A DNA stretch of 25,861 bases from assembly GCA_964448625.1 (NCBI GenBank), contig CAYUWT010000001.1, forward strand, positions 1 through 25,861. The letters are read 5' to 3'. Below, piece by piece: positions 1,375 through 15,878 of the stretch. This DNA comes from an uncultured archaeon (GTDB lineage: Archaea; Aenigmatarchaeota; Aenigmatarchaeia; QMZP01). The first letter of the stretch is position 1. Each line of letters opens with the position of its first letter. The translations under genes and the position numbers were made by a program. The notes under the pieces were generated by a model, which ran no database searches, was not told the DNA's origin, and saw nothing but the letters and a program-made list of their open reading frames with translations.

Positions 1375-1390
1375 ACAAACACCAAAACTA

Positions 1391-1410
1391 CCCGAACTTT
1401 AAAGTTCGGG
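1391..1410. repeat. 20-bp perfect palindrome, copy 1 (CCCGAACTTTAAAGTTCGGG)
   Basis: Read directly; self-complementary; flanks AAAACTA / AAATT. Confidence 0.95.
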
Positions 1411-1457
1411 AAATTAGATTGTTATATATACTATTGAGGGAACAATATAATAAATTA

Positions 1458-1477
1458 CCCGAACATTAATGTTCGGG
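1458..1477. repeat. 20-bp perfect palindrome, copy 2 (CCCGAACATTAATGTTCGGG)
   Basis: Read directly; self-complementary; flanks AAATTA / AATTT. Confidence 0.95.
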
Positions 1478-1494
1478 AATTTAAAGGGGGTTTT

Positions 1495-1680
1495 ATGGGA
1501 TTCGAGCAGATAATTAAAGACAAGGAAGAGCTTATAAAAACCATTCTGAAGCTGGTGGAGGATAAGGAAGCGAGAACCAAACTCAGCCTGAAGGGTGTGG
1601 AGTTCCACGTAGGGAAGTCCCTGGTAAGGATGAACGGGACTGTTGAGATAACATTCATCCCGCTTGAGGAAAAGAGATAG
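1495..1680 (+). CDS. small hypothetical protein (61 aa)
   Basis: Protein-like composition; purine-rich GGGGG upstream; stop is 1 nt before the next ATG, which suggests an operon. Confidence 0.6.
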   Translation: MGFEQIIKDKEELIKTILKLVEDKEARTKLSLKGVEFHVGKSLVRMNGTVEITFIPLEEKR

Positions 1681-1681
1681 C

Positions 1682-1945
1682 ATGGAAATTTTTGAGGAGA
1701 TTCTTAAGCACGTTAGCGGGAAGGCCGAGCTTTCAATCGAGATTGAAGGCAAGCCTGCTGCTGCGGTGAAAATGGACGGGAAAAAAATCACGATAGATGT
1801 TTTGGACCCGGCCTTTGCCATGAAGTTCGCAGGACAGAGCCTTTTCCGCGGGAAGGGTTTTGCGGAAAGCGGCACTCTCGCAAAACTGAAGAAAGCCGGT
1901 TTCACAATAAAAGCGAAATACATGATGCTGGAGATTGGGCTGTAG
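1682..1945 (+). CDS. small hypothetical protein (87 aa)
   Basis: ATG at 1682 immediately after the upstream TAG, in frame with the ORF-track call 1664..1945; the stop abuts the convergent gene. Confidence 0.6.
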   Translation: MEIFEEILKHVSGKAELSIEIEGKPAAAVKMDGKKITIDVLDPAFAMKFAGQSLFRGKGFAESGTLAKLKKAGFTIKAKYMMLEIGL

Positions 1946-1947
1946 CA

Positions 1948-2499
1948 TTACCTGTAAAGCTTCCCCTGTTGCATTTTCCTGTGATACCAGAATATAGCCC
2001 TTTCAATATCCCTCACAGGAGCCCTGAATTTCGCTGCATAATATCTTAATTTGGCAAGGTAATCACTCCAGTCATTAAAACCAAAATTTCTCCCAGAAGG
2101 CTTCGCTTTTACAGAGCCGTACAGATAGAGCATCTGCCATACCCTTATGTCAATCACACCGTAATTCTGCGGGTCTGTGAGGGTCAGTATTGCGGAAGCT
2201 GTCGGTATCGATACCCCCTTGAGGCTTGTGAGCAGCCCAATTTTTTTCCTTTCGGATTCTGCGGAAAACAGTTTTCTTGAAACCGAGACTATTTCCTCTT
2301 CGGAATTTTTGAGATATTGGTGCCTTGGCCGGGCGCTTTTCCACATGGCCATCTTCAGGAATTCCTCCTTTATGAAATAGCCCCTTTCTCCCGCCATCTT
2401 AAGCTCCCCCATCAGCTTCAGCGTTTCATTGTCTTCCTCAACATGAAGATTGTCCCTTATAAGCTCCCCTATTGTTGCATATTCCTTTCTCATTGCCAT
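1948..2499 (-). CDS. HhH-GPD superfamily (DNA glycosylase-like) protein
   Basis: HhH-like LTSLKGVSIPTASAIL followed by YGVIDIRV; TTATAAAA on the minus strand 27 nt upstream of the start. Confidence 0.6.
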   Translation of the reverse strand: MAMRKEYATIGELIRDNLHVEEDNETLKLMGELKMAGERGYFIKEEFLKMAMWKSARPRHQYLKNSEEEIVSVSRKLFSAESERKKIGLLTSLKGVSIPTASAILTLTDPQNYGVIDIRVWQMLYLYGSVKAKPSGRNFGFNDWSDYLAKLRYYAAKFRAPVRDIERAIFWYHRKMQQGKLYR

Positions 2500-2550
2500 A
2501 CTCGAATTTCTGCTTTGGTTTTATAAGAAGGGAAACGCAAATATTAACCA

Positions 2551-3594
2551 ATGCTCAAGCTTCTCGAGGAGCTCTCCAACGCCTGCGGGGTAAGCGGGAA
2601 CGAGTCCCATGTAAGGCACCTTGTTTCCAGGCTAATCAAGCCCCACGCGGATGACATGTACATAGACGGGATGGGGAACCTCATATGCAGGCAGAAGGGG
2701 GACGGCCCCAAGGTGATGCTGGCCGCGCATATGGATGAGATAGGGCTGTGCGTCAAGAATATAGATGATTTAGGCCATATATACTTCTCCCTTGTTGGCG
2801 GCATAAGCGAGGACGCTTTGATCGGCCAGTATGTCCACTTCCACCTTCAGCCCAAAGGGGAGCTGCACGGTGTTATTACACACCCCAGCCTGCATAACGA
2901 TGTGCGGTCAGACAAGGCCCCCAGCTATGCGGAAATGTACATAGACACAGGGCTTTCAAAAGCGGAGCTGCTCAGGAAAGGGGTCCATGTCGGCACCTCC
3001 GTTGTTTTCTCAAAAAGGCTCTCAGCCCTCGGGAACAAAAACATTGTGGCGGGGAAGGCTCTGGATGACAGGGTTGGTTGCGCGATACTCATAGAGCTTG
3101 CGGAGAGGATGAAAGGCAAAAAGGGATTGGACATATACTATGTTTTCACCGTTCAGGAGGAGGTCGGCCTCTACGGGGCAAAGACAGCGATATACCAGCT
3201 CGACCCCGACTGGGGGATAGCGGTTGACGCCACTTCCGCTGAAGACGCTTCCACAGCCGCAAAGGGCCTCGGGAAGGGGCCTTTCCTTACGGTGAAGGAT
3301 GCGGAGTTCATAGCCAATCCATTCCTGCTCGAGCACATAGTGAAAACAGCCCAGGCGAAAAGGATACCTTTCCAGTACGAGGTCTCCGATGCCGGCACGA
3401 CAGATGCGCTGAGCATGTCGCTTTCCAAGGGAGGCGTTGCAACATGCGTGCTTGCAGTAGGGGTGAGGAACCTGCACTCCACAATCTCGCTTGCTGACCT
3501 GCGGGACATAGAGGCGGCTGTAGAGCTGCTCGAGGCTTTGCTCCGCAGCCCGCCCAAGGTGCTGCACAAAAGAAAGTATTCGTTTTTCAAGTAG
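2551..3594 (+). CDS. M42 family (TET-like) metallo-aminopeptidase
   Basis: AAHMDEIG, KALDDRVG, VQEEVG and C-terminal LHST metal-ligand motifs. Confidence 0.9.
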   Translation: MLKLLEELSNACGVSGNESHVRHLVSRLIKPHADDMYIDGMGNLICRQKGDGPKVMLAAHMDEIGLCVKNIDDLGHIYFSLVGGISEDALIGQYVHFHLQPKGELHGVITHPSLHNDVRSDKAPSYAEMYIDTGLSKAELLRKGVHVGTSVVFSKRLSALGNKNIVAGKALDDRVGCAILIELAERMKGKKGLDIYYVFTVQEEVGLYGAKTAIYQLDPDWGIAVDATSAEDASTAAKGLGKGPFLTVKDAEFIANPFLLEHIVKTAQAKRIPFQYEVSDAGTTDALSMSLSKGGVATCVLAVGVRNLHSTISLADLRDIEAAVELLEALLRSPPKVLHKRKYSFFK

Positions 3595-3666
3595 TTTTTC
3601 TAAGTTGTCGGATGAATCACAAAACAAATTCGAACCAATTTATAGAAAAAACCCAACAATCAACCT

Positions 3667-4566
3667 ATGCGTACAAATAAAGGCAGCGCTGTAACTGTAG
3701 GAACCTTCGACGGCGTTCATAGGGGCCACCGCAAGATACTTGAAACACTTGTGAGGGAGGCTGAAAAGCGCAACCTTGAGCCTATTGTTGTTACATTCCC
3801 CGAGCCCCCGCGGAACTTTTTTGGGGACAAAACAAAGCTGCTGTGCACACTTGAAAAGCGGAAAGAGCTCCTCAAAAAAGCGGGGATAGAAAGGGTGGAG
3901 GTTATTGATTTTAAGGATATACACATGCTCTCCCCTGAAGAATTTGCAAAAAGGGTGCTTGCAAAAAGGCTGAATTGCAAACTGTTTGTTGCAAGCTCCG
4001 TGTTTGTTTTCGGAAATGGGAGGGAAGGCAATATTGGCACCCTCAGGGCCCTTGGGAAGGAGCACGGTTTTGAGGTGATAGAGGTTGGGGTGGATATGAA
4101 AGAAGGAAGGAAGGTGGGCAGCAGCGCAATAAGGGAGGCGCTTGCAGAGGGAGACATTGCAAAGGCAAGGGAGCTGCTGGGCTACGACCCCACACTTACG
4201 GGGAAAGTCATAAAAGGGAAAGGAAAAGGGAAGGAGATGGGATTTCCCACGATAAATATAGAGCCTGACAAGGGGCTGGCAGACCTGAAAAGCGGCATAT
4301 ATGCTGCGGTGCTTGCATATGGAGGGAAAGAATACAAAGGGGCGGGATACATAGGCACGAAACCCACCTTCGGCAGCAACAGGATGGGCTTTGAGATATA
4401 CATAATGGAAAAACCTCCCCGAATAGCGGCAGGGGAAAGGGCTGAGATAAGGCTGGTTGAAAGGATACGGGATGACAGAAAGTTCGGAAGCGAGCAGGAG
4501 CTTTCAGAGGCGATAGCAGGCGATGTAAAAGAAATAGATACATGGTTCAAAAAAAAGTTTCCCTAA
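3667..4566 (+). CDS. ribF: bifunctional FMN adenylyltransferase / riboflavin kinase (bacterial RibF type)
   Basis: N-terminal TVGTFDGVHRGH (HxGH) and SSAIRE; C-terminal GKGKGKEMGFPTINI, GTKPTF, ERIRDDRKF. Confidence 0.9.
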   Translation: MRTNKGSAVTVGTFDGVHRGHRKILETLVREAEKRNLEPIVVTFPEPPRNFFGDKTKLLCTLEKRKELLKKAGIERVEVIDFKDIHMLSPEEFAKRVLAKRLNCKLFVASSVFVFGNGREGNIGTLRALGKEHGFEVIEVGVDMKEGRKVGSSAIREALAEGDIAKARELLGYDPTLTGKVIKGKGKGKEMGFPTINIEPDKGLADLKSGIYAAVLAYGGKEYKGAGYIGTKPTFGSNRMGFEIYIMEKPPRIAAGERAEIRLVERIRDDRKFGSEQELSEAIAGDVKEIDTWFKKKFP

Positions 4567-4580
4567 CATTACTGTTCGTG
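4561..4580 (-). repeat. degenerate copy of the 20-bp palindrome (minus strand CACGAACAGTAATGTTAGGG)
   Basis: 17/20 match to copy 2; minus-strand flanks AAAACTA / AAA match copy 1; overlaps the ribF stop codon. Confidence 0.6.
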
Positions 4581-4640
4581 TAGTTTTTTACAATGCTTAT
4601 AAATCACTTCTCCTTACCAATGTTATAGTCATAACATTCC

Positions 4641-7631
4641 ATGTTTTCGGTGAGCAAAAGGATGCGAAATAACCATAACCCAACAGCTCTTGCCCTTTTT
4701 TCAATAGTCTCTATCCTCCTGCTGGCCCCCATTCACGTTTTTGCCCAGTCAATCTCCATAATTTCCCCTTCGGAAGGGCAGGCAGTGCTTTCAAACTCCT
4801 CGTTTTCAATCAGCTGGTCATCCTCAGGCATAGCCCATTTCCAGATAACTTACACAACAAACCTTTCAGCTTTGTGCAACGTTTCCGACAACGGGCAGTG
4901 CGAAAATAACGGCTGGTTATGCTTGCAGGACCACCCTTATGGAGATTCAGCGACAGCAGGCTGGACAGGGCAGGCACCGCAGCTCAACTCCACCGCAGTC
5001 AGGATACGGGTGGAGGGCCATGATGAAAGCCACGCAACTATAAACAACAGCTGCTCCCAGCTTTTCACAATAGCAAGCGTTCCCATGCCTCCCCGCAGCC
5101 TTGTAGCCGTTGCGCTCAATAAAAGCGCGATAAATATAAGCTGGGCAGCCCAGCAAAGCAACGAGCTTGTTACAAAGTATATGATTTACCGGGACTTGGC
5201 CAACATATACAGCACAACAGACAATAACACGCTTGCTTACATTGATAACGGCCTCACACCTTCAACACAATACAACTATACCCTTAAGGCCTTCAGCCCT
5301 GTTGGAGAATCCGCTTTCAGCAATACAGCCTCCGCAACAACCCTCCCGATGCCCCCTCATGTCAACCTTACCTCCCCCATCAACGGCCTGCTCACAAACT
5401 CCACCAGCCTTAATCTCACATGCTCAGCCACGGGGAGTTCTCTTAAAACCATAACCCTCTACGGCAACTGGAGCGGAGGCTGGCACACCAACGCAACACA
5501 AAATGTTTCAGGTAGCGCGGACTCCTCAACCTTTCCCGTGAGCCTTGCGGAAGGCCATTACTCATGGAACTGCCTTGCGGCGGAGGCAAGCGGCCCCAGC
5601 TCCTTTGCCGCTTCAAATTACACATTTATTATTGATACCACACCTCCCTCACTGAATATCACCTCCCCTACCAGCAACTCAATAGAGAGTGTCTCAAGAA
5701 ACATCACCTTCCGCTATATTGTGGGCGACTCGAACCCCATAGCCTCGTGCAACCTTTCGGTAGCGGGAATGCAGGGCAAGCCAGCTTCAGATGTGCCTCG
5801 CGCGACTGAACAGTCATTTTCAATGATTCTCCCAAACGGAAATTACAATTGGAGCATTTCATGCAAAGATAGCGCGGGAAACATCAACACCTCCGGGACC
5901 TTTATGCTCAATGTTTCCGTCCCCGACATGCCGCCCGCAGTGCAGCTCTTCTCCCCGGCTGATAGCCAGAACACAACCGGCTTTGTAACCTTCATCTGCG
6001 GGGCGGAAGACGATTTCGGGCTTGCGAACATAAGCCTTTACCACAACATCACAGGCAACTTTTCGTTCAACCAGACTGCCAGCGTTTCAGGGGCTGCAGC
6101 CAATGTAACCTTTGCCATCCAGAACATACAGCCGGGAACCTATATCTGGAGTTGCAGGGCCTCAGATAGCGGAGGCAGGACAGCTTTTGCTGCTGCGAAC
6201 AGGACCTTCAGGACTCTCGAATTTTCCATAACTGTTACGAGACCCGCCGGCGGAGACTCATGGAGAGGCGGGAGCGTGCAGGAAGCAAGGTGGGGGGCTT
6301 CAGGCAACTTCAGCCATTTCTCCGTCTGCTACGCCCTCGGAAGGGAATGCACAGGCAGCACACGGTGCGCTGATTCGGGCTGGTCATCCATAATGGACAG
6401 GGTTTCGGAAACCTCATTTGATTGGACTGTTCCCCCCACTGTAAACTCAGATTCAGCTGCTATTATGGTTGAAGGCTATGACTACTCAGGCAGCTTTGCA
6501 GCAGGAAAATGCTCCGGCACATTCTCAATATACACGGAAGTTTTACCCGCAACCCCTGCCGCCACCCAGGAGGGGCAGAGCACCAGCCAGCAGGAAACAT
6601 CAAAAAACGCAAGCGGGACATCCATCACTACCCTCCAGCAGCCTGCCCAGGAAGGCGCGGCTCAAGCAGCTGCTGCAGCCCCGGCCGCAGTGGAAGCGCA
6701 GCCTGCAGCAGCGCAGCTCAGGGTGGCAAAGTCAATAGAGTCTCTCACAGCAGGGCAGCCTTCCATTCTCGAGTTCAATGCCGGCCACATAAGCAACATA
6801 TCCATTCTCCCGCTGAATAACGCGACAGGAATAGGCCTTGAGGTCACAACCTCCCCTCCCCTCGCAAACATAACCCCTCTCTCCAGCTACGTTTTTGAAT
6901 ATATGGATATAGCAGTTTCAGGCAACATAAGCCTGCAGAAGGCTCTGATAACATTTTTCCTTGAAAGGAACGAGATGGAGGGCGCAAGCGCAAATATGGG
7001 AAGCATAGCGCTCTATCACATGGAAGGCGGCAAATGGCTCGCATTGCCCACCCGCGTTATTTACACGGAGGGCAACCGCACATTTTTCGAGGCTGAAACA
7101 CGCTCATTTTCCCTCTTTGCCATAGGGGTATACAGCTCCTTTTCCCTGACAGGGCTTCTCGCCTTCGACCGCAGCGCAGTTTCTTCAATAATAATAGTGG
7201 CAGCCATTGCAGCAGGCTTCCTTTATTACAAAGCCCGTGCTTCATATTTTGCAGGCGGAAGGAGGCGGAAAAAGATAATAATGCAGCCCAGGAAAGACGG
7301 GCAGGAGCAGGCGGCAGACAACTCCGGAAAACCCTATATGGAAACAGAACCGGAATCTCCACAGGCGCCGGCAATCAGGGCAAAAATAAATGGAACCGGG
7401 GAAATGGAAAGCCTGAAGGAAAGGCTTGCATTCCTGCGCAGCAGGGTTGTCGGGCCGGCCTCACCCAAACCCGAAAAGGCAAAAAGCCGCATGCCTGCAG
7501 GCAGCAGGGAGAAGCTTGCTTTCCTCCATGAGGCTGTGCTTGGCGAAAGACCTGCGGGGAAGACAAAGGGCGCTGCAAACAAAAAGGCAGGCTTCAGAAA
7601 GAAGACACCGAAACCAAAGAAGAGCATGTAG
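4641..7631 (+). CDS. large cell-surface glycoprotein (Ig-like/FN3 repeats, PGF-pre-PGF domain, C-terminal TM helix, basic tail)
   Basis: N-terminal hydrophobic signal; FN3-like segment (PPRSLVA...W...Y..Y...GLTPSTQYNYTLKA); three PPxV/L..SP...W.C...D/E..G repeats; EAETRSFSLFAIG (PGF-pre-PGF-like); TM SIIIVAAIAAGFLYY; many N-x-S/T sequons. Confidence 0.8.
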   Translation: MFSVSKRMRNNHNPTALALFSIVSILLLAPIHVFAQSISIISPSEGQAVLSNSSFSISWSSSGIAHFQITYTTNLSALCNVSDNGQCENNGWLCLQDHPYGDSATAGWTGQAPQLNSTAVRIRVEGHDESHATINNSCSQLFTIASVPMPPRSLVAVALNKSAINISWAAQQSNELVTKYMIYRDLANIYSTTDNNTLAYIDNGLTPSTQYNYTLKAFSPVGESAFSNTASATTLPMPPHVNLTSPINGLLTNSTSLNLTCSATGSSLKTITLYGNWSGGWHTNATQNVSGSADSSTFPVSLAEGHYSWNCLAAEASGPSSFAASNYTFIIDTTPPSLNITSPTSNSIESVSRNITFRYIVGDSNPIASCNLSVAGMQGKPASDVPRATEQSFSMILPNGNYNWSISCKDSAGNINTSGTFMLNVSVPDMPPAVQLFSPADSQNTTGFVTFICGAEDDFGLANISLYHNITGNFSFNQTASVSGAAANVTFAIQNIQPGTYIWSCRASDSGGRTAFAAANRTFRTLEFSITVTRPAGGDSWRGGSVQEARWGASGNFSHFSVCYALGRECTGSTRCADSGWSSIMDRVSETSFDWTVPPTVNSDSAAIMVEGYDYSGSFAAGKCSGTFSIYTEVLPATPAATQEGQSTSQQETSKNASGTSITTLQQPAQEGAAQAAAAAPAAVEAQPAAAQLRVAKSIESLTAGQPSILEFNAGHISNISILPLNNATGIGLEVTTSPPLANITPLSSYVFEYMDIAVSGNISLQKALITFFLERNEMEGASANMGSIALYHMEGGKWLALPTRVIYTEGNRTFFEAETRSFSLFAIGVYSSFSLTGLLAFDRSAVSSIIIVAAIAAGFLYYKARASYFAGGRRRKKIIMQPRKDGQEQAADNSGKPYMETEPESPQAPAIRAKINGTGEMESLKERLAFLRSRVVGPASPKPEKAKSRMPAGSREKLAFLHEAVLGERPAGKTKGAANKKAGFRKKTPKPKKSM

Positions 7632-7632
7632 G

Positions 7633-7656
7633 CTCCACGCGGCTTTGCCAGCGGAG
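7633..7656. repeat. imperfect hairpin CTCC-AC-GC-GGC-TTT-GCC-A-GC-GGAG immediately after the stop codon
   Basis: Read directly; could be a terminator-like or REP-like element. Confidence 0.5.
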
Positions 7657-7682
7657 TTAACCAAAAACCGGGGCCTTAACTA

Positions 7683-7702
7683 CCCGAACTTTAAAGTTCG
7701 GG
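7683..7702. repeat. 20-bp perfect palindrome, copy 3 (identical to copy 1)
   Basis: AACTACCCGAACTTTAAAGTTCGGG is shared exactly (25 bp) with 1386-1410. Confidence 0.95.
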
Positions 7703-7748
7703 CAATCTAGCAGGCCGAGTTATTGGCAAAGCCAACAGAGGCTATTGC

Positions 7749-7757
7749 TTTATAAAG
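7749..7757 (+). promoter_or_regulatory. TATA box (TTTATAAAG) for the CxxC-x17-CxxC gene
   Basis: Matches the archaeal TATA consensus; the gene also has an SD-like AAGGAG at 7815-7820. Confidence 0.5.
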
Positions 7758-7829
7758 AATTCCTACAAATATTGGGCAGGTATGGGAGAAAGCTCTTTGA
7801 TACCTTCAATAAGTAAGGAGTAAGTTAGC

Positions 7830-7982
7830 ATGCCATTCAAGAGTTTTGGCGGGCCGCGGCAAATGTTCAAGGCCAAATGTTCCGACTGCGGAAATGACTG
7901 CGAAGTGCCGTTCCAGCCTTCCGAAGGGCGTCCGGTTTACTGCCGCGACTGTTTCGCAAAACACCGACCAAAGAGATTCTAA
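7830..7982 (+). CDS. CxxC-x17-CxxC domain small Zn-binding protein (50 aa; not in the ORF track)
   Basis: Manual translation: MPFKSFGGPRQMFKAKCSDCGNDCEVPFQPSEGRPVYCRDCFAKHRPKRF. It has PRQMF, CxxC, VPF.P..GRPVYCxxC. Confidence 0.9.
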   Translation: MPFKSFGGPRQMFKAKCSDCGNDCEVPFQPSEGRPVYCRDCFAKHRPKRF

Positions 7983-8062
7983 TTGTATAAAAGTTAGAAC
8001 GAAACAAAATCGTTATTTTTTTCCGTTTATTTTGTATTTAAGCCTTCTGCACAAAGGCTAAT

Positions 8063-8506
8063 ATGTCTGGTGTGGAAAGGCGCAGGATATTCGTGGGCCG
8101 CGAGATGCTCCCCTTGGAGGAATTGAGGGAGCATGAAACGATTAACTACGCAAGGCTTGCGGAGCTTATGGATGAGATTGTTTCTACGGGCATGCTTGAC
8201 AAGCCCATTGTGGTCGACATAAATACGAAAACCATAATAGACGGCCACCACCGCTACAACGTCTTCAGGAACCTGGGTTTTGCGGAAATACCCGTTATCT
8301 ATGTGGATTACTTCCACCCTTCCATAGTGCTCCATTCCCTGAAGCAGGTCACGAAGGAGGACGTGATAAGAACGGCCAGCACAGGCAGGAAATTTCCTTC
8401 AAAAACAACGAGGCACATGCTTGCAAAGGGCCACAAGCTGGTCCACATCTCCGACCCGGTTAAGAACGTGAACTACCCCGTTTTAATAGGGCAGATGGTG
8501 GAGTGA
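8063..8506 (+). CDS. ParB/sulfiredoxin-fold protein, short SerK/SbnI (free serine kinase)-like
   Basis: LREHE, PIVV...IIDGHHRY, IPVIYVDY and C-terminal TKEDVI...GRKFPSKTTRH; TATA-like TTTAA at 8037. Confidence 0.7.
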   Translation: MSGVERRRIFVGREMLPLEELREHETINYARLAELMDEIVSTGMLDKPIVVDINTKTIIDGHHRYNVFRNLGFAEIPVIYVDYFHPSIVLHSLKQVTKEDVIRTASTGRKFPSKTTRHMLAKGHKLVHISDPVKNVNYPVLIGQMVE

Positions 8507-8593
8507 GAAAATTTTTGCAGTTATAATAACAGGCATAGTTTCTTCGATTGCCCCAATCTTCAAAGCTTTAAAACTGATTTCCCTTTCTAATAG

Positions 8594-9676
8594 ATGGAAG
8601 CGGCAAAAAGCATAGTTGAACTGATAGGGAACACGCCCCTTGTCAGGGTAAACAGGCTTGTTTCAAACGGGGCAGAGCTGTATGCGAAGCTCGAGTATCT
8701 GAACCCCGGAGGCAGCGTAAAAGACCGCATAGGTATAGCGATGATTAATGACGCTGCTGAGAAGGGTTCGATTAGAAAAGGGATGGCAATTATAGAGCCC
8801 ACCTCAGGCAATACAGGCATAGGACTACTCCTTGCAGCCATACAGTTTGGCTGCAACATGGCTTTTACAGTCCCGGACAAGCAGAGCAAAGAAAAGGTCA
8901 ACCTCCTCAAGGCCTATGGGGGACTGGCGGTTGTTACGAGGACGGATGTGGAGCCTGAAGACCCGCGGAGCTATTACAGGGTTGCGGAGATACTGAGGAA
9001 TGTGATAAACCATGAGAAAACGCCTCCCGGCCATGAAAGGCTTGGTTCTATTGTGGACAATATCCAGAAGCTTGTAAAGGAAGATAATGCGAAGGAGCTG
9101 AAAAGGCTGCTTGAAGCGCCGGGGAAATATAGCAACGCGTTCATACCCAACCAATACAGGAACATGGCAAACCCTCTTGCCCATTACAGGACTACAGGGC
9201 CTGAGATATGGAAGCAGACTGGAGGGAAACTGGACGCTTTCGTGTGCGGAATGGGCACAGGCGGAACCATAAGCGGCGCAGGCCGGTTTCTCAAGGAGAA
9301 AAACCCTGAAATAAAGGTGATAGGGGTTGATACGGAAGGCAGCATACTTCACCACCATTTCTACGGGACCGAAGGAAAGGCATACCCCTACAAGATTGAG
9401 GGCATAGGGGAGGATTTTATACCTGAAACAACGGATTTCAGCGTGGTGGATGAGATAATAACTGTGGGGGACAGGGAGGCTTATGAAACCGCAGGGGAGC
9501 TTGCGAGGAAGGAGGGCATTCTTGCAGGGAGCTCCGGGGGCGCTGCAATGCTTGGGGCTATGAAGGTGTGCAAAAGGATGGGGAAGGGGATTGTTGTTGT
9601 GCTGCTCCCGGACGGGGGGAGAAATTACCTGAGCAAGCTTTACAATGACGAGTGGATGAGGGTGAACTTCCCATGA
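8594..9676 (+). CDS. PLP-dependent cystathionine beta-synthase / cysteine synthase family enzyme
   Basis: LNPGGSVKDRIG (PLP lysine), EPTSGNTG, GMGTGGT, IEGIGEDF. EDPRSYY is CBS-like. Confidence 0.9.
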   Translation: MEAAKSIVELIGNTPLVRVNRLVSNGAELYAKLEYLNPGGSVKDRIGIAMINDAAEKGSIRKGMAIIEPTSGNTGIGLLLAAIQFGCNMAFTVPDKQSKEKVNLLKAYGGLAVVTRTDVEPEDPRSYYRVAEILRNVINHEKTPPGHERLGSIVDNIQKLVKEDNAKELKRLLEAPGKYSNAFIPNQYRNMANPLAHYRTTGPEIWKQTGGKLDAFVCGMGTGGTISGAGRFLKEKNPEIKVIGVDTEGSILHHHFYGTEGKAYPYKIEGIGEDFIPETTDFSVVDEIITVGDREAYETAGELARKEGILAGSSGGAAMLGAMKVCKRMGKGIVVVLLPDGGRNYLSKLYNDEWMRVNFP

Positions 9677-10818
9677 GCAGCTTTGAAACCAGATGTGTTC
9701 ATGGAGGGCAGAAGCCTGACCCGACAACAGGTGCTATTGTGCCTCCTGTTTACATGACTGCAACCTATGTTCTTGACAGGATAGGAGGCTGGAAGGGTTA
9801 CGATTATTCGCGCACAATAAACCCAACGAGGGTAGCTATGGAAAATCTCCTTGCCGAGCTGGAGGGGTCAAAGCACGGCATAGCCTTTGCCTCCGGGCTT
9901 GCGGCAATCACAAGCATACTCTCCCTCCTTTCAAAAGGAGACCATGTGGTTTCAACGGATGACATTTATGGCGGCGTGTACAGGCTTTTCGAGCAGGTCT
10001 TGAAAAGGTTCGGGCTGGAGTTCACTTATGTTGACAGCTCAGAGCCTGGGAATATAGAAAGTGCAATAAAGGATAACACGAAAATGCTGTGGATTGAAAC
10101 CCCGACCAACCCCCTTCTTAAAATAACAGATGTGGAGGCTGCAGCAAAAATAGCAAAAAGGGAAAAGTTAATATCTGTTGTGGACAGCACCTTTGCAACC
10201 CCATACAACCTCCGCCCGCTCGAATACGGGATTGACATAGTGATGCACAGCACAACGAAATACATAAGCGGCCACAACAACCTCATAGGGGGCTTTGCAG
10301 CAGCAAGCAGTGATGAGCTTGCAGAAAAGCTCCGCTTTCTCCAGAACGCGATCGGAGCTGTTCCCGGTCCCATGGACTGCTGGCTTGTAATCATGGGCGC
10401 AAAAACGCTGCACTTGCGGATGGAAAAGCACGAGAAGAATGCGCGTGAGATAGCAGCATTTCTCGAATCCCACCCGAAAATAGAAAGGATTATCTACCCG
10501 GGCCTTGAATCCCACCCGCAGCACGGAATAGCGAAGAGGCAGATGAAGGGCTTTGGGGGTATGATAAGCTTTGAGCTCAAAGATGATTCTCATGCAGGCG
10601 AGCGCTTTGCGAATTCCCTGAAGCTAATTTCCCTCGCCGAAAGCCTCGGCGCTGTTGAAAGCATGCTCACCCACCCTGCAACAATGACCCACAAGAGCAT
10701 TCCAGGCGGGGAGAGGCTGGCAAGGGGGATAACCGATGGGCTGGTAAGGCTCTCGGTCGGGGTAGAGGATGTGGAGGACATAAGGGCTGATCTGGAGCAA
10801 GCCCTCGAAAAGGCATGA
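9673..10818 (+). CDS. cystathionine gamma-lyase/synthase (trans-sulfuration PLP enzyme)
   Basis: YSRTINPT, FASGLAA, ETPTNP, VVDSTFA, HSTTKYISGH, SLGAVES, RLSVGVED; ATGA overlap with the upstream stop. Confidence 0.92.
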   Translation: MSSFETRCVHGGQKPDPTTGAIVPPVYMTATYVLDRIGGWKGYDYSRTINPTRVAMENLLAELEGSKHGIAFASGLAAITSILSLLSKGDHVVSTDDIYGGVYRLFEQVLKRFGLEFTYVDSSEPGNIESAIKDNTKMLWIETPTNPLLKITDVEAAAKIAKREKLISVVDSTFATPYNLRPLEYGIDIVMHSTTKYISGHNNLIGGFAAASSDELAEKLRFLQNAIGAVPGPMDCWLVIMGAKTLHLRMEKHEKNAREIAAFLESHPKIERIIYPGLESHPQHGIAKRQMKGFGGMISFELKDDSHAGERFANSLKLISLAESLGAVESMLTHPATMTHKSIPGGERLARGITDGLVRLSVGVEDVEDIRADLEQALEKA

Positions 10819-10851
10819 TTAATGTATTTAAGCTGTTTTACGATTTTAGTT

Positions 10852-11238
10852 ATGGGCAGATCTGTGGACACAATGCCCAGGCAGTATATCAAGAAGCTCG
10901 CCGCCTATGCCCGCCAGCTGGAAGGGACTGATTCATATCCCAGTTGTCCGGAAATAAAAGGCCTGGAAGAACTCTACTGCAAATTAAAAGGACGCCCCAT
11001 CAAGCTTCTCCGCGAGATGCTGGAGTGCAACATAGTCGCCCCTGATGGTGAGTGGTCTTGCAGGGGGCCGCCAGACGTAAAGAAAAGGCTGTATGATTTC
11101 GGTCTTCTTAAAAGGGAAAAGATGCCTGGCTATGGCAGAGGTGTCCATGTCCGTTACAGATACAGGATAGCAGAGAAACAAGCCGGTCTGATAAGAGAGT
11201 TAGTGTATATTGCCTATGGAAAACAGCCATCTGGATAA
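10852..11238 (+). CDS. hypothetical protein (128 aa)
   Basis: Fills the gap between flanking genes; TTTAA at 10827 lies 25 nt before ATG 10852; no family recognised. Confidence 0.5.
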   Translation: MGRSVDTMPRQYIKKLAAYARQLEGTDSYPSCPEIKGLEELYCKLKGRPIKLLREMLECNIVAPDGEWSCRGPPDVKKRLYDFGLLKREKMPGYGRGVHVRYRYRIAEKQAGLIRELVYIAYGKQPSG

Positions 11239-11249
11239 AAGCTATTAAG

Positions 11250-11627
11250 CTATTTTCTGTCCTGCCACAGCCCTATTATATTGCCTTCAGTGTCCCTGAA
11301 GCGCGCATAAAAGCCCATATCGCCCACCGGCACTGTCGGCATAACAATCTTTCCCCCGGTCTTCTCCACCTTTTTTATGTGCTCCTCAATGGAAGGCACT
11401 TTTATCACAATTACAGGATGCTTTCCAGTCTCATCTCTCTTCACCATGCCGCCGTTTATCGCTCCCGGGGTTTTGGGCATCCCCTTCTCATCAGTTTCCA
11501 CTGTATTGACAAGGCAATAGTTCATCCGGGGAATCTCGTTGATAGACCAGCCGAAGGTCTCCCTGTAAAACTTCTGCGCCCTCTCCATATCATCCGCAGG
11601 TATCTCGAAGTGGACCACTTTGTTCAT
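11250..11627 (-). CDS. VOC / glyoxalase-bleomycin resistance family protein
   Basis: MNKVVHFEIPADD...RAQKFY..TFGW; INGGM; G.YARFRDTEGNIIGLWQ. Confidence 0.9.
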   Translation of the reverse strand: MNKVVHFEIPADDMERAQKFYRETFGWSINEIPRMNYCLVNTVETDEKGMPKTPGAINGGMVKRDETGKHPVIVIKVPSIEEHIKKVEKTGGKIVMPTVPVGDMGFYARFRDTEGNIIGLWQDRK

Positions 11628-11674
11628 AAGATGGATATCCTTTTGAAACAGAGATTTATATAGCTGCAATAAAA

Positions 11675-11962
11675 TCAAGGCAGGCAGACCGTTGGCTCAT
11701 TGTTGTCATGCGCATAATCTCCACTGAAGTCGAGATAATGCAGCCTTCCCAGGTTTTGGCTGTTCCCGAGGGTGCAGACATCATGGCAGTCAGTGCCGGG
11801 GATGGTGTGTGCAGACGGCTGGCCATGTGGCGGAGCTGGTATTGCTGCAGTGCCGCTGCAATGGGCCCTTATAACTCCGTTAGGGAAATGCGGATATGCG
11901 GCCGGCAGCGCAAGAACTACAAACATCCCGGCTATTCCCAAAACAATCAGCAGATGCTTCAT
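11675..11962 (-). CDS. small putative secreted Cys/His-containing protein (95 aa)
   Basis: Signal-peptide-like N-terminus MKHLLIVLGIAGMFVVLALPAA; TTATTAAG on the minus strand 28 nt upstream. Confidence 0.45.
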   Translation of the reverse strand: MKHLLIVLGIAGMFVVLALPAAYPHFPNGVIRAHCSGTAAIPAPPHGQPSAHTIPGTDCHDVCTLGNSQNLGRLHYLDFSGDYAHDNNEPTVCLP

Positions 11963-12106
11963 ATTTATGAAGTGACAGCAATCTTAATAAGCTTGTGTGT
12001 TCTCCACGTGGTGGAGCGGGCTTGCCATGCTGCTATTCTTTTTTATTTTGCCCCCGGTTGCCTCCCCTGAACATGCAGCCTTAAATCATACGCATCAATA
12101 ATCATT

Positions 12107-13036
12107 ATGAAAGAGACAGTCCTTGAAGTTGAGAACCTTACAAAAAGTTACCTCTCCTTCCGCGCAGTAAACGGCATATCCTTCCGCGTTCCTAGAGGAA
12201 AGGTCATAGGGCTGCTCGGCCCCAACGGGGCTGGCAAAACCACAACAATACACATGCTTTTGGGCGTAACGCTCCCTGATAAAGGGGCTATACGGTATTT
12301 TGGCCAGGATTTTTTCAGGAACAAGGAAAGCAGCCTGCAGAGGATAAACTTCGCCTCCTCTTTCAACACGCTGCAGGGCCGCATCTCAGTGAAAGAGAAT
12401 CTTCTGGTTTTCGCAAAGCTCTATGGTGTCAGGGAGGCGGAAAGCAGGATAATGGAACTTGCTGAGATTTTTGAGATCAGAGAGATACTCCCGCAGCGCT
12501 TCTGGGACCTTTCCTCCGGGCAGAAGACCCGCGTTAATCTCGTGAAGTCCCTTATCAATGAGCCGGAGCTGCTCCTCATGGACGAGCCAACCGCCTCCCT
12601 TGACCCGGATATAGCGGACAAGACCCTGTCCTTCATCGAGCAGCTGAAGAAATCAAGCGAGATAACAATACTCTATACGAGCCACAACATGGATGAGGTT
12701 GCAAGAATCTGCGATGAGGTTGTTTTCCTCGACAGGGGCAGGATTGTGGCGCATGACACTCCGCTCGGCCTGACCAAGCGCATAAAAAGCGCCACCCTGA
12801 GGCTGACATTCGACGGGGAAAAAAGGAAGGTGGAAAGATACCTCAAAACCCGGAAACAGCCCTTTTCTTTTGTGAAAGAACACGTAGTTTCCATAAGCAC
12901 GAAGGAAAAGCTCATACCGAAGCTGATATTCGGGGTAAGCCAGGCGGGAATATGGATAACGGATATTGAAGTGAAGAAACCCACTCTGGAGGACGTGTTC
13001 CTGCAGATAGCAAGGAGGAAGCATGCGGCTCCATAG
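12107..13036 (+). CDS. ABC transporter ATP-binding protein (ABC-2/drug-export type)
   Basis: GPNGAGKTT, LSSGQ, LLLMDEPT, H-loop TSH, C-terminal PTLEDVF. Confidence 0.95.
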   Translation: MKETVLEVENLTKSYLSFRAVNGISFRVPRGKVIGLLGPNGAGKTTTIHMLLGVTLPDKGAIRYFGQDFFRNKESSLQRINFASSFNTLQGRISVKENLLVFAKLYGVREAESRIMELAEIFEIREILPQRFWDLSSGQKTRVNLVKSLINEPELLLMDEPTASLDPDIADKTLSFIEQLKKSSEITILYTSHNMDEVARICDEVVFLDRGRIVAHDTPLGLTKRIKSATLRLTFDGEKRKVERYLKTRKQPFSFVKEHVVSISTKEKLIPKLIFGVSQAGIWITDIEVKKPTLEDVFLQIARRKHAAP

Positions 13037-13811
13037 GATAAAGGCAATACTTCTGCAGGAATATTTCATAACCAGGAGGTCGCTTGAGGTGATAATGGAC
13101 CTCTTCTTCTTCTCCATAATTTCAGTGATAGTGTTCGGCTTCATCTCCGCGTTCCTGGCCGGCTCCGCAAGCGCAGCTACAGCCCAGTCCCTCCTGCTGG
13201 GGATGATTCTCTGGGAAATAATACGCATAACCCAGTATTCGATGTCTGTTGGGGCTTTATGGAACATATGGTCGCGCAACCTCAGCAACATGTTCATCGC
13301 GCCCCTCTCGCTTGCTGAATACATGCTCGCGCACATGCTCTCAGGGACAGCCAAGGCGCTTCTGGCATTCGCAGGCATGTGGCTCATAGCCTCTTACATA
13401 TTCGGCTTCAACATACTTTCTCTCGGCCCGGTTAATCTTACGCTCTTTTTCGCGAACCTGACTTTATTCTCATGGTCCACAGGGATAATAATTCTCGGTG
13501 TCATATTCCGCTACGGGACAAGGATACAGGCCCTTGCATGGGGGCTTATATTCCTCTTCCAGCCTCTCACTGCAGCATTCTTCCCGGTGAGCGTTCTCCC
13601 CCCTGCGCTGCAGACAATAGCCTACCTTTTCCCGCCCACCTATGTTTTCGAGGCCGCGAGGGCAGCCCTGATAAACCCTTCGGTTGACTGGGGCATGGCC
13701 GGCCTTGCACTGGCAGAAAACATTGTTTATTTTGCCCTTTCCCTCCAGCTTTTCAGCTTCATGTTCCGGAAGTCAAAACAAACCGGCCAGTTCGCGAGGA
13801 ACGAGGGGTAA
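13023..13811 (+). CDS. ABC-2 type transporter permease
   Basis: About six hydrophobic segments, FFPVSVLP..LQ.IA..FP.TY..EA.R motif; overlaps the ATPase gene. Confidence 0.9.
   Translation: MRLHRIKAILLQEYFITRRSLEVIMDLFFFSIISVIVFGFISAFLAGSASAATAQSLLLGMILWEIIRITQYSMSVGALWNIWSRNLSNMFIAPLSLAEYMLAHMLSGTAKALLAFAGMWLIASYIFGFNILSLGPVNLTLFFANLTLFSWSTGIIILGVIFRYGTRIQALAWGLIFLFQPLTAAFFPVSVLPPALQTIAYLFPPTYVFEAARAALINPSVDWGMAGLALAENIVYFALSLQLFSFMFRKSKQTGQFARNEG
13782..13810 (+). repeat. 29-bp direct repeat, left copy (permease 3' end)
   Basis: ACCGGCCAGTTCGCGAGGAACGAGGGGTA. Confidence 0.9.
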
Positions 13812-13863
13812 TCAGCCTGCGTATGCATATATCCTTTATATTTACACAATTCAACACAGAGTT

Positions 13864-14586
13864 ATGAGTTGGGTGGGGGAGGATAATAGAGATTCTGTTA
13901 AAACATACACGCTTTCTCCAGAGGAGTTTCTGGGACCGCTTAATGATATAGAACAAAAATATGCTCCTAAGAGGTTTTATGTCGCGGGCAAACTTTCAAT
14001 TATGCGCTCTATCCCTAGAATAGCTATAATTGGTTCCAGAAAGGCAAGCCAAGAAGGTCTTAAGAGGAGTGAGGAGTTGACCGAAGCCCTTGTGAATCAT
14101 GGTGCGACCATTGTCAGCGGGCTTGCAGAAGGCATAGATACATCTGCTCACCAAACAGCTATCGATGAGGGAGGGCGGACAATAGCAGTTCTCGGCACAT
14201 CTCTTGATAAAAATTATCCGGCAAAAAACCGCAACCTTCAAAAGTTAATTATGAAAGAGCATCTTGCAGTGACACAATTCCCTTCAGGCTATCCAATCAA
14301 CCGCAGCAATTTCCCCATGAGGAACAGGACAATGGCGCTGATTTCCCACGCTTCGGTTATAGTGGAGGCTGATGATACAAGCGGCGCCCTTTCCCAGGGA
14401 TGGGAAACCATCCGCCTCGGCAGGCCGCTTTTCATAATGAAAGCGGTGATGAGCAATCGCTCTCTTACATGGCCTGCACAAATGCGCGCTTACGGAGCGT
14501 TTGTACTTTCAACTCCCGAGGAGGTGCTTGAGGTTCTGCCGCCCCCGGGGTCGAACCTTAACATGGATGCTGCTCTCAAAGCTTGA
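13864..14586 (+). CDS. dprA: DprA/Smf-like (SLOG fold) protein, core domain only
   Basis: IAIIGSRKAS, IVSGLAEGIDTSAH, TIAVLGT, FPMRNRTMA, VIVEA...SGAL; TTTATA at 13835, 29 nt upstream. Confidence 0.88.
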   Translation: MSWVGEDNRDSVKTYTLSPEEFLGPLNDIEQKYAPKRFYVAGKLSIMRSIPRIAIIGSRKASQEGLKRSEELTEALVNHGATIVSGLAEGIDTSAHQTAIDEGGRTIAVLGTSLDKNYPAKNRNLQKLIMKEHLAVTQFPSGYPINRSNFPMRNRTMALISHASVIVEADDTSGALSQGWETIRLGRPLFIMKAVMSNRSLTWPAQMRAYGAFVLSTPEEVLEVLPPPGSNLNMDAALKA

Positions 14587-15229
14587 ATACGGGGCTATTT
14601 TGTCTTATACACCGAAGCCTCAAACAGAGGATGAAAAGGCGTCACGGACTTTGATGTATAAGCTGAAAACCGATTCTGTTTCAAAAATTGGCACTGCCGA
14701 ACCATTACCATTCTCCCTATATATTGCGAAGCACATAGCAAGGAAAATCTCCGCTCTCCCATTTTCCGGTTTCTTTGGACCAAAAACAACTCTTGTGCCT
14801 GTCCCGAAAAGCTCACTGCTCAAGCAGGGGATACTTTGGGTGCCGCGCCGACTTGCAGAGGCCTTTGTTAAGGAAGGTCTGGGCGGAAAGGTAGTGGAAT
14901 ATCTTAAGCGCAAAGAAGCGCTTCCCAAAGCAGCCTTCCAGACTGATTCCAAGAATCGCCCTAGGCCTGAGGATCATTACAGAACACTTCAGGTTGAAAA
15001 AATATTTGACATTCCAAATTCCATTGTTTTGATAGATGATGTAGTGACAAGCGGTTCCGCCCTTCTTGGGTCTGCAAGCCGCCTCGCTGAAATCTTTCCG
15101 GGGGTCATTATTTCAGCTTTTGCAGTTATGCGGACAATAAGCAACCCAAATGAGTTCAAGAGCATAGAAGACCCATGCAGGGGAAAAGTCATACTGCGCC
15201 CAAATGGGACTGCCGCCCGCGAGCCATGA
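14567..15229 (+). CDS. ComF-like type I phosphoribosyltransferase
   Basis: LVPVP motif and PRPP-binding loop IVLIDDVVTSGSAL; overlaps the DprA-like gene by 20 bp. Confidence 0.85.
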   Translation: MLLSKLEYGAILSYTPKPQTEDEKASRTLMYKLKTDSVSKIGTAEPLPFSLYIAKHIARKISALPFSGFFGPKTTLVPVPKSSLLKQGILWVPRRLAEAFVKEGLGGKVVEYLKRKEALPKAAFQTDSKNRPRPEDHYRTLQVEKIFDIPNSIVLIDDVVTSGSALLGSASRLAEIFPGVIISAFAVMRTISNPNEFKSIEDPCRGKVILRPNGTAAREP

Positions 15230-15260
15230 GTAGACATGGAAAAAATGTTCCGCCTTCGAG

Positions 15261-15289
15261 ACCGGCCAGTTCGCGAGGAATGAGGGGTA
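15261..15289 (+). repeat. 29-bp direct repeat, right copy
   Basis: ACCGGCCAGTTCGCGAGGAATGAGGGGTA; 28/29 identical to 13782-13810. Confidence 0.9.
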
Positions 15290-15340
15290 GACTGTTTCCT
15301 TTATCTTACCGTAAAATGAAAATTCAATGGGGGTGGTTAC

Positions 15341-15571
15341 GTGAAAAAAGGCAGGAAGGTAAATGAAAGTTTTTGGGAAGATGGGTTTTTTGCCAAGGCT
15401 GTCAGCGAGGAGGAGATGAAGGAAAAGGCAAAGACCATCCACATGAAACATGACGAGGATATGAGATTCAGCTGCCGGAAATGCACAAGGAAAATATCCG
15501 CCCATAACAAAGACTGGCATGACGGCATGTGCGATGAGTGCTTCGATAAGGAGTATTTCCCCGAAAAGTGA
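15341..15571 (+). CDS. small hypothetical protein with two CxxC pairs (putative Zn finger)
   Basis: CRKC...CDEC; GTG start is uncertain. Confidence 0.6.
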   Translation: MKKGRKVNESFWEDGFFAKAVSEEEMKEKAKTIHMKHDEDMRFSCRKCTRKISAHNKDWHDGMCDECFDKEYFPEK

Positions 15572-15645
15572 GGCCGGGCATTTATGGCCCGCATATGCTG
15601 AAAAGATATCATTTTTTAGAATTTACGCATGTCGCTTCCGAGACG

Positions 15646-15710
15646 CTCCATGCTTTACTATTTCCCGCATTCAAACTTAAACCTGTATGCGGGAAGCTGT
15701 TAGCATGGAG
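15646..15710. repeat. 65-nt two-stem hairpin (CTCCATGCT/AGCATGGAG outer, TTCCCGCAT/ATGCGGGAA inner)
   Basis: Two perfect 9-bp stems, read directly. Confidence 0.8.
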
Positions 15711-15728
15711 AGTGGATGAAAATCATTA

Positions 15729-15748
15729 CCCGAACCTTAAGGTTCGGG
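15729..15748. repeat. 20-bp perfect palindrome, copy 4 (CCCGAACCTTAAGGTTCGGG)
   Basis: Read directly; flanks CATTA / AAGTT. Confidence 0.95.
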
Positions 15749-15773
15749 AAGTTTCTTACGTTGAGCAGTAGAC

Positions 15774-15836
15774 ACCCGCTTCAAAAAATCCCGCATACAA
15801 AGCGATCTCGTATGCGGGTAGCTTCAAGCGGCGGGT
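15774..15836. repeat. nested hairpin (ACCCGC/GCGGGT outer, CCCGCATAC/GTATGCGGG inner) with internal 7-bp direct repeat GCTTCAA
   Basis: Stems at 15774-79/15831-36 and 15790-98/15810-18; GCTTCAA at 15778-84 and 15821-27. Confidence 0.75.
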
Positions 15837-15878
15837 AGTTCAGTGCAAATTCTTAATACCTCCCCCCCAAAATATGCT

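Follow-up and report, generated by a model that had tools for sequence, protein, structure and literature searches.

A ~30-bp palindromic repeat that is probably very small mobile DNA in an Aenigmarchaeota-like archaeal lineage

The locus studied here, contig CAYUWT010000001.1, raises the question of whether a 20-bp palindrome that recurs along it is a mobile element or a site read by a regulatory protein. By the window we mean the whole 25,861-nt stretch of DNA that was analyzed. A preliminary description of the window, made from the sequence alone, had reported the palindromes as one family and had preferred mobility over an operator. That preference is supported here. The palindrome family is a lineage-specific, high-copy, dispersed repeat, and comparison with homologous proteins indicates that copies have inserted into conserved genes, a combination that argues for mobility and against an operator. 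The interspersed repeat, ~30 bp long, is probably a very small non-autonomous mobile DNA of the same kind as repetitive extragenic palindromic (REP) elements and small dispersed repeats (SDRs), carried by one Aenigmarchaeota-like lineage of the DPANN archaea.

A pattern scan of the whole window found exact matches to CCCGAACNTTAANGTTCGGG at 1391, 1458, 7683, and 15729 and a match with three mismatches at 4561. Dinucleotide-preserving shuffles of the window yielded 0.00 matches compared with these five copies, which bears out the family as real. The copies and their flanks are as follows.

1386..1415 (core 1391-1410), plus strand, repeat copy 1, AACTA-CCCGAACTTTAAAGTTCGGG-AAATT
1453..1482 (core 1458-1477), plus strand, repeat copy 2, AATTA-CCCGAACATTAATGTTCGGG-AATTT
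4556..4585 (core 4561-4580), minus strand, degenerate copy in which 17/20 bases match
7678..7707 (core 7683-7702), plus strand, repeat copy 3, AACTA-CCCGAACTTTAAAGTTCGGG-CAATC
15724..15753 (core 15729-15748), plus strand, repeat copy 4, CATTA-CCCGAACCTTAAGGTTCGGG-AAGTT

The variable base pair beside the TTAA center (X/X') is T/A, A/T, T/A, and C/G in the four exact copies, just as had been described. The copy at 4561 reads CCCTAACATTACTGTTCGTG between the flanks TT..TA and so has the opposite orientation that had been assigned to it. The flanks, AACTA or ATTA on the left and AA(N)TT on the right, were seen again on reading the sequence.

Outside the window, a scan of GTDB with one genome per species (185,579 genomes) returned only 13 single matches, which fell in unrelated taxa at about the level of chance and many of which resemble ordinary terminator hairpins followed by a T run. 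A metagenome scan found 79 loci, 57 of them from four related hot-spring assemblies and with flanks of the window type; removal of redundancy left 53 independent loci of the lineage. The family sample assembled around these loci comprises 48 sources and 185 kb in total after overlapping contigs were removed, and it holds 66 perfect and 18 degenerate copies. The contigs were sampled only around repeat copies, so that these counts are biased. Many copies lie at contig ends, as expected for a repeat that breaks short-read assemblies. Three relatives (L094-L096, 10 to 21 kb each) contain 0 copies. The AAC and CAC arm variants had 0 matches in viral contigs, and a virus or plasmid origin was rejected accordingly.

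The archaeal nature of the host, as previously proposed, is upheld by its closest named relatives, which are Candidatus Aenigmarchaeota (57 to 58% identity for a PGM-like protein and 48 to 49% for an MMPL protein). The nearest named relatives of the PGM-like, LpdA-like, and MMPL proteins are members of Candidatus Aenigmarchaeota, Woesearchaeota, and Nanoarchaeota at only 45 to 58% identity, which places the host, on protein similarity, as an uncultured, deep-branching Aenigmarchaeota-like DPANN archaeon with no close sequenced relative. The window has a match in a JGI metagenome contig, and the sequencing runs that contain it, two of low depth examined as contigs, are hot-spring metagenomes only. 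Several genes of the window look bacterial, namely those for a bifunctional RibF (FAD synthetase and riboflavin kinase, 3667-4566), a DprA homologue (13864-14586), and an M42 peptidase; RibF and DprA were probably acquired horizontally. As a separate observation, the word depth of the contig in run X1 rises to 43x at 12107-12650 compared with ~4x elsewhere in the window, which probably reflects cross-mapping of a conserved ABC ATPase domain from other community members.

When oriented, the copies share the consensus AACT-W-CCCGNAC-NTTAAN-GTNCGGG-W-AATT, in which both W bases (A or T) are identical. The arms are kept complementary through many sequence states. Among the 71 sites of the form CCCG-N3-N6-N3-CGGG in the 185 kb, 66 have perfectly complementary N3 arms, and three of the four single-mismatch arms carry G.T. 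Because the search pattern had fixed the arms as AAC/GTT, the following compensated arm variants are extra, unselected copies in the same contigs: CAC/GTG (6), GAC/GTC (2), CGC/GCG, and TAC/GTA. Double changes also occur in degenerate copies (CCTGAAC..GTTCAGG, found twice, and GCCGAAC..GTTCGGC). Three central hexamers occur, ATTAAT, TTTAAA, and CTTAAG, whereas GTTAAC is absent. Over the 53 independent loci, X/X' is A/T in 27, T/A in 14, C/G in 11, and T/G in 1, so that 52/53 are complementary, compared with 10/30 non-complementary pairs in the matches outside the family.

The covariation of the arms claimed from the few window copies was confirmed on 76 distinct 34-mers. Their 8-bp helix is 97% paired, with double-sided changes at five of its eight pairs, and the covariation score of 0.205 (0.098 in shuffled alignments) was reached by 0/500 shuffles; helix registers slid along the same alignment score 0.02 to 0.06. 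The predicted fold of the copies as single-stranded DNA (ssDNA) is a stem of 8 bp that ends in a TTAA loop, with energies from −8.3 to −10.1 kcal/mol and z of about −4 to −6. Arms that remain complementary through many base identities are not predicted by independent read-out of half-sites by a dimeric regulator, and the earlier preference for a folded hairpin over protein read-out gains support from the same fact. Two named candidates were set aside. A known RNA gene or motif was rejected, with no Rfam or tRNA match at the window or at 20 family loci, and a bacterial LexA-type box (GAAC-N4-GTTC) was dropped on account of the N6 spacing and the archaeal host. RNA matches elsewhere in the family contigs are one 5S rRNA and two tRNAs; the lone 5S rRNA gene (L019, 3883-4000) lies on a 6.3-kb contig with no 23S rRNA match.

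The palindromes had been described as all intergenic or at a gene end. This holds within the window; across the family, however, 12/66 perfect copies (about a fifth) lie more than 30 nt inside called genes, as delimited approximately by a codon-usage-trained gene caller. Intragenic copies are read in frame as (Y/F)-P-N-(I/L/F)-(N/K)-V-R-(E/V), and nearly the same peptide results from both orientations because the center of the palindrome falls on a codon boundary. In three of the six combinations of strand and frame there is a stop codon, either a TAA supplied by the loop or a TAR supplied by the flank, and only the three open combinations occur in genes: Y..E, F..V, and the TRTLxFGK frame (L087 and L072). 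In-frame copies occur, among others, in genes for an LpdA-like dehydrogenase, an MMPL transporter, a ThiI-like protein, a PMT_2 glycosyltransferase, and an LTD-domain protein and in the linker of an APH-AAA_33 protein; a SAM methyltransferase has two of them in tandem.

Two of these proteins were compared with their homologues at the palindrome. The LpdA-like protein P0121 has a 7-residue insertion there that is absent from 13/13 nearest homologues (43 to 52% identity). Its best PDB match has a gap at this segment, and in the AlphaFold model (mean pLDDT, 87.5) residues 241 to 247 are the only internal segment below 50 and form a loop between two strands. The MMPL protein P0241 has a 9-residue insertion at the palindrome, inside the conserved RFRQEL..EKAM motif, and it is absent from 15/15 homologues. 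The net gains of DNA are 21 bp (LpdA) and 27 bp (MMPL). Segments absent from all homologues point to DNA inserted in this lineage, and the frame usage suggests that the inserts are translated as extra residues. Coding sequence makes up 84% of the sample and genic copies at most one fifth, which suggests either that selection removes most genic insertions or that insertion favors intergenic DNA. For genes with copies near the N terminus (uL23, CBS, DUF58, and ATP-grasp), the true start codon may be downstream of the repeat. A related observation comes from methyltransferases: the same tandem palindrome pair lies just upstream of a 186-aa SAM methyltransferase gene (L048, 3530-3578) and inside the frame of a paralogous 250-aa methyltransferase (L079, 1057-1106), which suggests that repeat copies can extend or remodel N termini.

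The flanks were tabulated over 65 perfect copies of the lineage, and they bear out the asymmetric, directional flanks of the preliminary description. The bases that touch the core are A..A in 28 copies and T..T in another 28, and the combinations A..T and T..A do not occur. A stands at −4 in 62/65, T at −2 in 64/65, A at +2 in 58/65, and T at +4 in 55/65, and conservation fades gradually from −4 to −8. The pair at −3/+3 (C/A in 31 and T/G in 24) is a better orientation marker, and the two forms are one asymmetric context, AACT-W-core-W-AATT, read on either strand, so that direction is given by this pair together with the identical W bases. Relative to fixed flanks, the two orientations of W-core-W are about equally frequent. 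An extension of the hairpin into the outer AAYT/ARTT flanks was rejected: these are 72% paired, with one pair unpaired in 39/76 copies and no supported helix. Only two empty 9-mers (AACTWAATT) are present in the 185 kb, where 3.6 are expected, compared with ~55 occupied sites; their rarity indicates that the flanks, rather than being a target that was there beforehand, travel or arise with the element. Immediately outside the palindromes there is often a second recurrent motif, AGTTTAGCGGAAAAGG or its reverse complement CCTTTTCCGCTAAACT (L026, L053, L083, L062, L090, L019, and L093), at which larger composite repeats may have their outer edge.

[quoted passage not shown] The 30-bp unit is indeed an almost perfect inverted repeat, dispersed in both orientations and clustered, and the identical W bases could be a 1-bp target duplication, with which the LpdA gain agrees (21 bp = 20 + 1). 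A 1-bp duplication into a pre-existing AAYT-W-ARTT site was nevertheless rejected as a general rule. The MMPL gain is 27 bp, excision of the core plus 1 bp from genic copies of the Y..E type leaves an in-frame TAA stop, and the 9-mer that would have served as the target is too rare by a factor of 15 to have been there beforehand. Compensatory changes in both arms are moreover unexpected for ends recognized independently, no transposase was found among the 211 proteins and six-frame open reading frames (ORFs) of the ~185 kb of family contigs, and ~30 bp is below any described MITE (PMC10969869). We consider such an element very unlikely.

As to the genomic context of the copies, occupied intergenic regions are tandem in 13 cases, divergent in 13, and convergent in 5, compared with 107, 28, and 28 among all regions in the sample, and in tandem regions the copies run in the same direction as the genes in 8 cases and in the opposite direction in 6. 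The region types and the mixed orientation indicate an element that is neither promoter-only nor terminator-only. In the window, copy 1 lies 16 nt from the 5′ end of the gene for a HerA-like ATPase (76-1374, minus strand), and an ATG at 1495 begins 17 nt downstream of copy 2; the two copies are intergenic between divergent genes and bracket an A/T-rich spacer of 47 bp. The degenerate copy overlaps the RibF stop codon (4564-4566), whose TAA is made by a G>T change at core position 4, so that the final RibF codons are encoded by the repeat. Copy 3 is 51 nt past the stop of a gene for a 996-aa surface protein and 128 nt before a 50-aa zinc-ribbon ORF, and copy 4 is 94 nt upstream of an amidohydrolase gene that starts at 15843. 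Two small-gene observations belong to these surroundings. The 50-aa ORF (7831-7982) has two CxxC pairs, zinc-ribbon-like, and no Pfam match, and the overlapping short ORFs at 1495-1680 and 1664-1945 (61 and 93 aa) have good codon scores and no Pfam match and may be one frameshifted gene or two small genes.

The same context speaks to an alternative in which the main selection is on an RNA hairpin that protects or processes transcript ends and the spread of the repeat is secondary. The stem of 8 bp is stable, its mismatches are mostly G.T, for many copies a gene end is only a few bases away, and bacterial REPs are thought to act in this way (PMC3733652). The orientation and position of the copies, however, are not tied to transcription, since they are equally frequent between divergent genes, upstream of both; no Rfam family matches, and insertion into coding sequences and nested arrays would be left unexplained. 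We accordingly give this alternative very little credence.

The repeat also occurs as half-sites. The unit AAYTW-CCCGNAC occurs 169 times, compared with 9 in a reversed-sequence control, and 112 of the 169 units form 56 palindromes of exactly 20 bp; the remaining 57 are solo units, found mostly in arrays at a spacing of 15 to 18 bp. Convergent pairs of neighboring modules span exactly 20 bp in 56/58 cases, without cargo. Palindromes form tandem arrays in four contigs (L020, L072, L079, and L086) and nested arrays, with all modules pointing inward, in seven (L016, L032, L036, L050, L067, L071, and L093), and new copies sit inside or beside older copies. Successive nested arm pairs are AAC/GTT, CAC/GTG, and AAC/GTT in L071 and CAC/GTG, the rare CCTGAAC/GTTCAGG, and AAC/GTT in L036. 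Such level-by-level matching of arms is expected if newer copies landed near the centers of older palindromes and split them. Simple nested insertion at the TTAA center was rejected, because it is at odds with the sequences at the junctions, even though the arms match in identity. Two further features of the window belong to this superfamily or its arrays.

15664..15693, no strand assigned, related superfamily member with a longer palindrome, CCCGCAT-16 nt-ATGCGGG between the flanks ATTT and AAGCT
15775..15840, no strand assigned, nested composite with outer modules CCCGCTT (15775-15781) and GCGGCGGG (15828-15835)

The first matches a CCCGCATACAAA..TTTGAATGCGGG subfamily present in L083 and L090. 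The second encloses an inner palindrome, CCCGCATAC-11 nt-GTATGCGGG (15790-15818), and ends in a TAGTT flank (15836-15840), so that window positions 15664-15840 are a mosaic of nested palindrome modules. Around them, 15229-15843 is a stretch of ~600 bp without a convincing gene, dense in CCCG..CGGG modules of several subfamilies, and with no Rfam match.

Half-sites and arrays bring in the strongest rival, a protein-binding array. In this explanation the palindrome would be bound in a sequence-specific manner by a dimeric regulator, a partition protein, or a protein of the nucleoid or origin-recognition type, with AAYTW-CCCGNAC as the half-site, two of which face each other in the 20-bp palindrome, and the arrays as cooperative platforms. 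The excess of half-site modules over the control fits this, as do the 57 solo modules, often 15 to 18 bp apart and all facing inward, and the two window copies that bracket an A/T-rich, TATA-like spacer between divergent genes. Two Aenigmarchaeota-like relatives (L095, 2648-3145, and L096, 121-760) moreover carry another palindromic module, TTCACGTGAA(C/G)TT, in localized arrays that repeat every 11 bp. These arrays adjoin a gene for a ~100-aa helix-turn-helix (HTH) protein and, in L095, also a gene for an AAA_22 plus winged-helix (wHTH) ATPase followed by an A/T-rich stretch, and they may be a replication origin, a partition site, or a regulatory site. No homologues of these HTH and AAA-wHTH genes were found in the family contigs.

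Against a binding site, the arms change together at positions that a protein would read or ignore, copies are nearly all perfect (64 versus 18 degenerate), and the identical, non-complementary bases adjacent to the core break the dyad symmetry. Convergent intergenic regions hold copies too, as do coding regions, where the copies are insertions that no homologue shares, and the arrays of the relatives are confined to one locus and not dispersed. Related grounds speak against an operator for a dimeric regulator, since the arms covary, sites occur in convergent regions and inside genes, and the element is absent from three relatives and from orthologous proteins. We regard a binding site as quite unlikely. 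A still different explanation of the modules is a DNA-uptake-type signal, like the DNA uptake sequence (DUS) of Neisseria, accumulated through a preference in transformation. The window does encode a DprA homologue (13864-14586), and the 12-mer module occurs in excess, is often paired in inverted orientation, and is found inside genes as well. Uptake signals, however, build up by point substitution and not by insertion of 7 to 9 codons, the spacing of paired modules is exactly 20 bp in 56/58 convergent pairs, and arm covariation has no role in uptake, so that we find this explanation barely credible.

For the mobile repeat that we favor, the element would exist at least transiently as an intrastrand ssDNA hairpin in which a stem of 8 bp, closed by a TTAA loop, has a W.W mismatch at its base. 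A single-stranded hairpin would impose just such features: complementarity over eight positions, G.T as the prevailing mismatch, and a W.W mismatch that is obligatory. This hairpin could be copied or corrected arm against arm, or it could be moved by a structure-specific enzyme that acts in trans. An HUH/Y1 enzyme (RAYT or IS200-like) would be the most likely type of mobilizer, an assignment that we offer only tentatively. It is the best-precedented candidate because REPs and the ends of IS200/IS605 elements are recognized as single-stranded hairpins that bear an asymmetric feature (PMC3733652). Effects on neighboring genes, such as hairpins at mRNA ends, the stop donated to RibF, and extra surface loops on proteins, would be by-products.

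The unequal insert sizes and the fuzzy boundary of the flanks fit templated copying of a donor, with variable co-transfer of its flanks, at least as well as cut-and-paste. Template switching in quasi-palindromes is an established mutational process, and copied hairpins yield flip/flop forms; as a lead, the two orientations of W-core-W within fixed flanks may resemble such forms. It is conceivable, though in our view unlikely, that the palindrome propagates without a conventional transposase by fold-back or template-switch copying of the hairpin and lands preferentially within or next to copies already present and in A/T-rich sequence that resembles AACT/AATT. Each round of copying would then restore perfect symmetry and flip the unpaired W bases, and repeated rounds would build the nested arrays and add loops of 7 to 9 residues to essential proteins. 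If this were true, the repeat would represent a new class of ultra-small, self-symmetrizing mobile DNA, and it would be the first system of the REP type to be described from DPANN archaea.

Several results weigh against mobility. No Y1/HUH motif was found by regular-expression search in the 211 proteins or in six-frame ORFs of at least 70 aa of the ~185 kb, a small and fragmented sample, and no TnpA, RAYT, TnpB, IscB, or other transposase was found near the copies in this same sample. Clustering of paralogues on the family contigs revealed no recurrent neighboring paralogue. Contigs that are 99% identical and come from different assemblies show no difference in presence or absence at the repeats, and movement is read only from distant homologues, 45 to 58% identical. 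The inserted unit lacks sharp ends, with gains of 21 and 27 bp and a gradual decay of the flanks, and no simple model of target duplication fits; a 1-bp duplication implies an ancestral in-frame TAA stop for genic copies of the Y..E type. Copies are as common between divergent genes as elsewhere, unlike bacterial REPs. Lastly, both the spacing of half-sites (15 to 18 bp) and the localized palindromic arrays by HTH and AAA-wHTH genes in relatives resemble protein-binding sites, so that the repeat may have a DNA-binding protein as a partner.

REP-like and very small mobile repeats have been described for bacteria and organelles, and an archaeal case in a reduced DPANN genome would mean that even the smallest cellular genomes are invaded. 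Host proteins would be reshaped by short added loops, among them LpdA, the MMPL transporter, and a methyltransferase. The repeat is also a compact case for how palindromes stay symmetric, by selection on a hairpin or by arm-to-arm copying, and it poses the question of what enzyme could mobilize an element of only 20 bp. In practice, the repeats break metagenome assemblies of the lineage and create spurious ORF extensions, which is relevant to gene callers.

Bacterial REPs and their dimers (REPINs) are palindromes tagged by GTAG or CGTC and mobilized by the RAYT Y1 transposase (PMC3733652, PMC3116915), and they too are found in frame inside genes, singly or as dimers (PMC3733652). Like them, the archaeal repeat is a G+C-stemmed palindrome of 20 to 40 bp that is high-copy and species-specific, has several stem variants per genome with compensated arms and a short conserved tag beside the stem, is clustered in inverted or alternating orientation, and has occasional in-frame genic copies. 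It differs in its archaeal host, and archaeal families are missing from a large survey of REPs (PMC3733652). Almost all of its copies are perfect palindromes, and enrichment between convergent or unidirectional genes is lacking (13 tandem, 13 divergent, and 5 convergent regions). In place of an invariant 5′ GTAG or CGTC, the tag 5′ of the stem is AAYTW, with a YTWC part, and GTAG appears on the opposite strand, 3′ of the stem, only when Y = C (37/65 copies).

The resemblance to IS200/IS605 ends that had been drawn earlier proved loose. Those elements and PATE elements, common in archaea, likewise have subterminal hairpins recognized as ssDNA and an asymmetric feature that distinguishes the strands. 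They have, however, two different hairpins with cargo or a remnant between them and a 4- to 5-nt target 5′ of the left end, whereas here the entire element consists of one 20-bp hairpin, there is no cargo between two hairpins, and the GTAG-like tag is 3′ (5′ in bacterial REPs). MITEs (~50 to 500 bp with a fixed duplication) differ from the ~30-bp repeat with its gains of 21 and 27 bp and covarying arms.

Nearer in size are the SDRs of Nostocaceae, reportedly 21 to 27 nt long as Elhai et al. described them in 2008. They are mobile and far smaller than any MITE, with a compensated hairpin and copies nested in copies, and we know of no mobilizing enzyme for them. By this description the archaeal repeat is alike in being tiny and probably mobile, with a compensated hairpin and nested copies; the SDRs differ in their cyanobacterial hosts and unrelated sequences, and, to our knowledge, frequent in-frame insertion into conserved enzymes has not been reported for them. 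The mobile G+C clusters and palindromic repeats of mitochondria spread in compact genomes, form tandem arrays, and occasionally lie in frame in genes. In fungi and algae they are likewise short G+C-rich palindromes with A/T-rich flanks (examples in PMC7218506 and PMC4524435), although they occupy organelle genomes, have unrelated sequences and no known mechanism, and are similar by resemblance only.

Insertion into genes recalls the Rickettsia palindromic elements (RPE), palindromic selfish DNA that lies in frame in functional genes and is translated as extra surface segments (PMC10969869, PMC3733652). The LpdA (+7 aa) and MMPL (+9 aa) insertions are likewise in frame and use only stop-free frames, which suggests that they are translated. 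RPE of the RPE-1 type, however, are ~100 to 150 bp long and encode 30 to 50 residues in obligate intracellular bacteria, whereas the present core of 20 bp adds 7 to 9 residues in an archaeal host and most copies are intergenic. As it departs from REP/RAYT elements in tag position and genomic distribution, from IS200/IS605-derived elements in its single hairpin and lack of cargo, and from MITEs in its size and lack of a fixed duplication, we file the repeat as a candidate archaeal ultra-short, near-perfect palindromic mobile repeat, one that appears to work most like bacterial REPs and the SDRs of Nostoc and whose in-frame habit is common to RPE (PMC3733652, PMC10969869, PMC3116915, PMC5861425).

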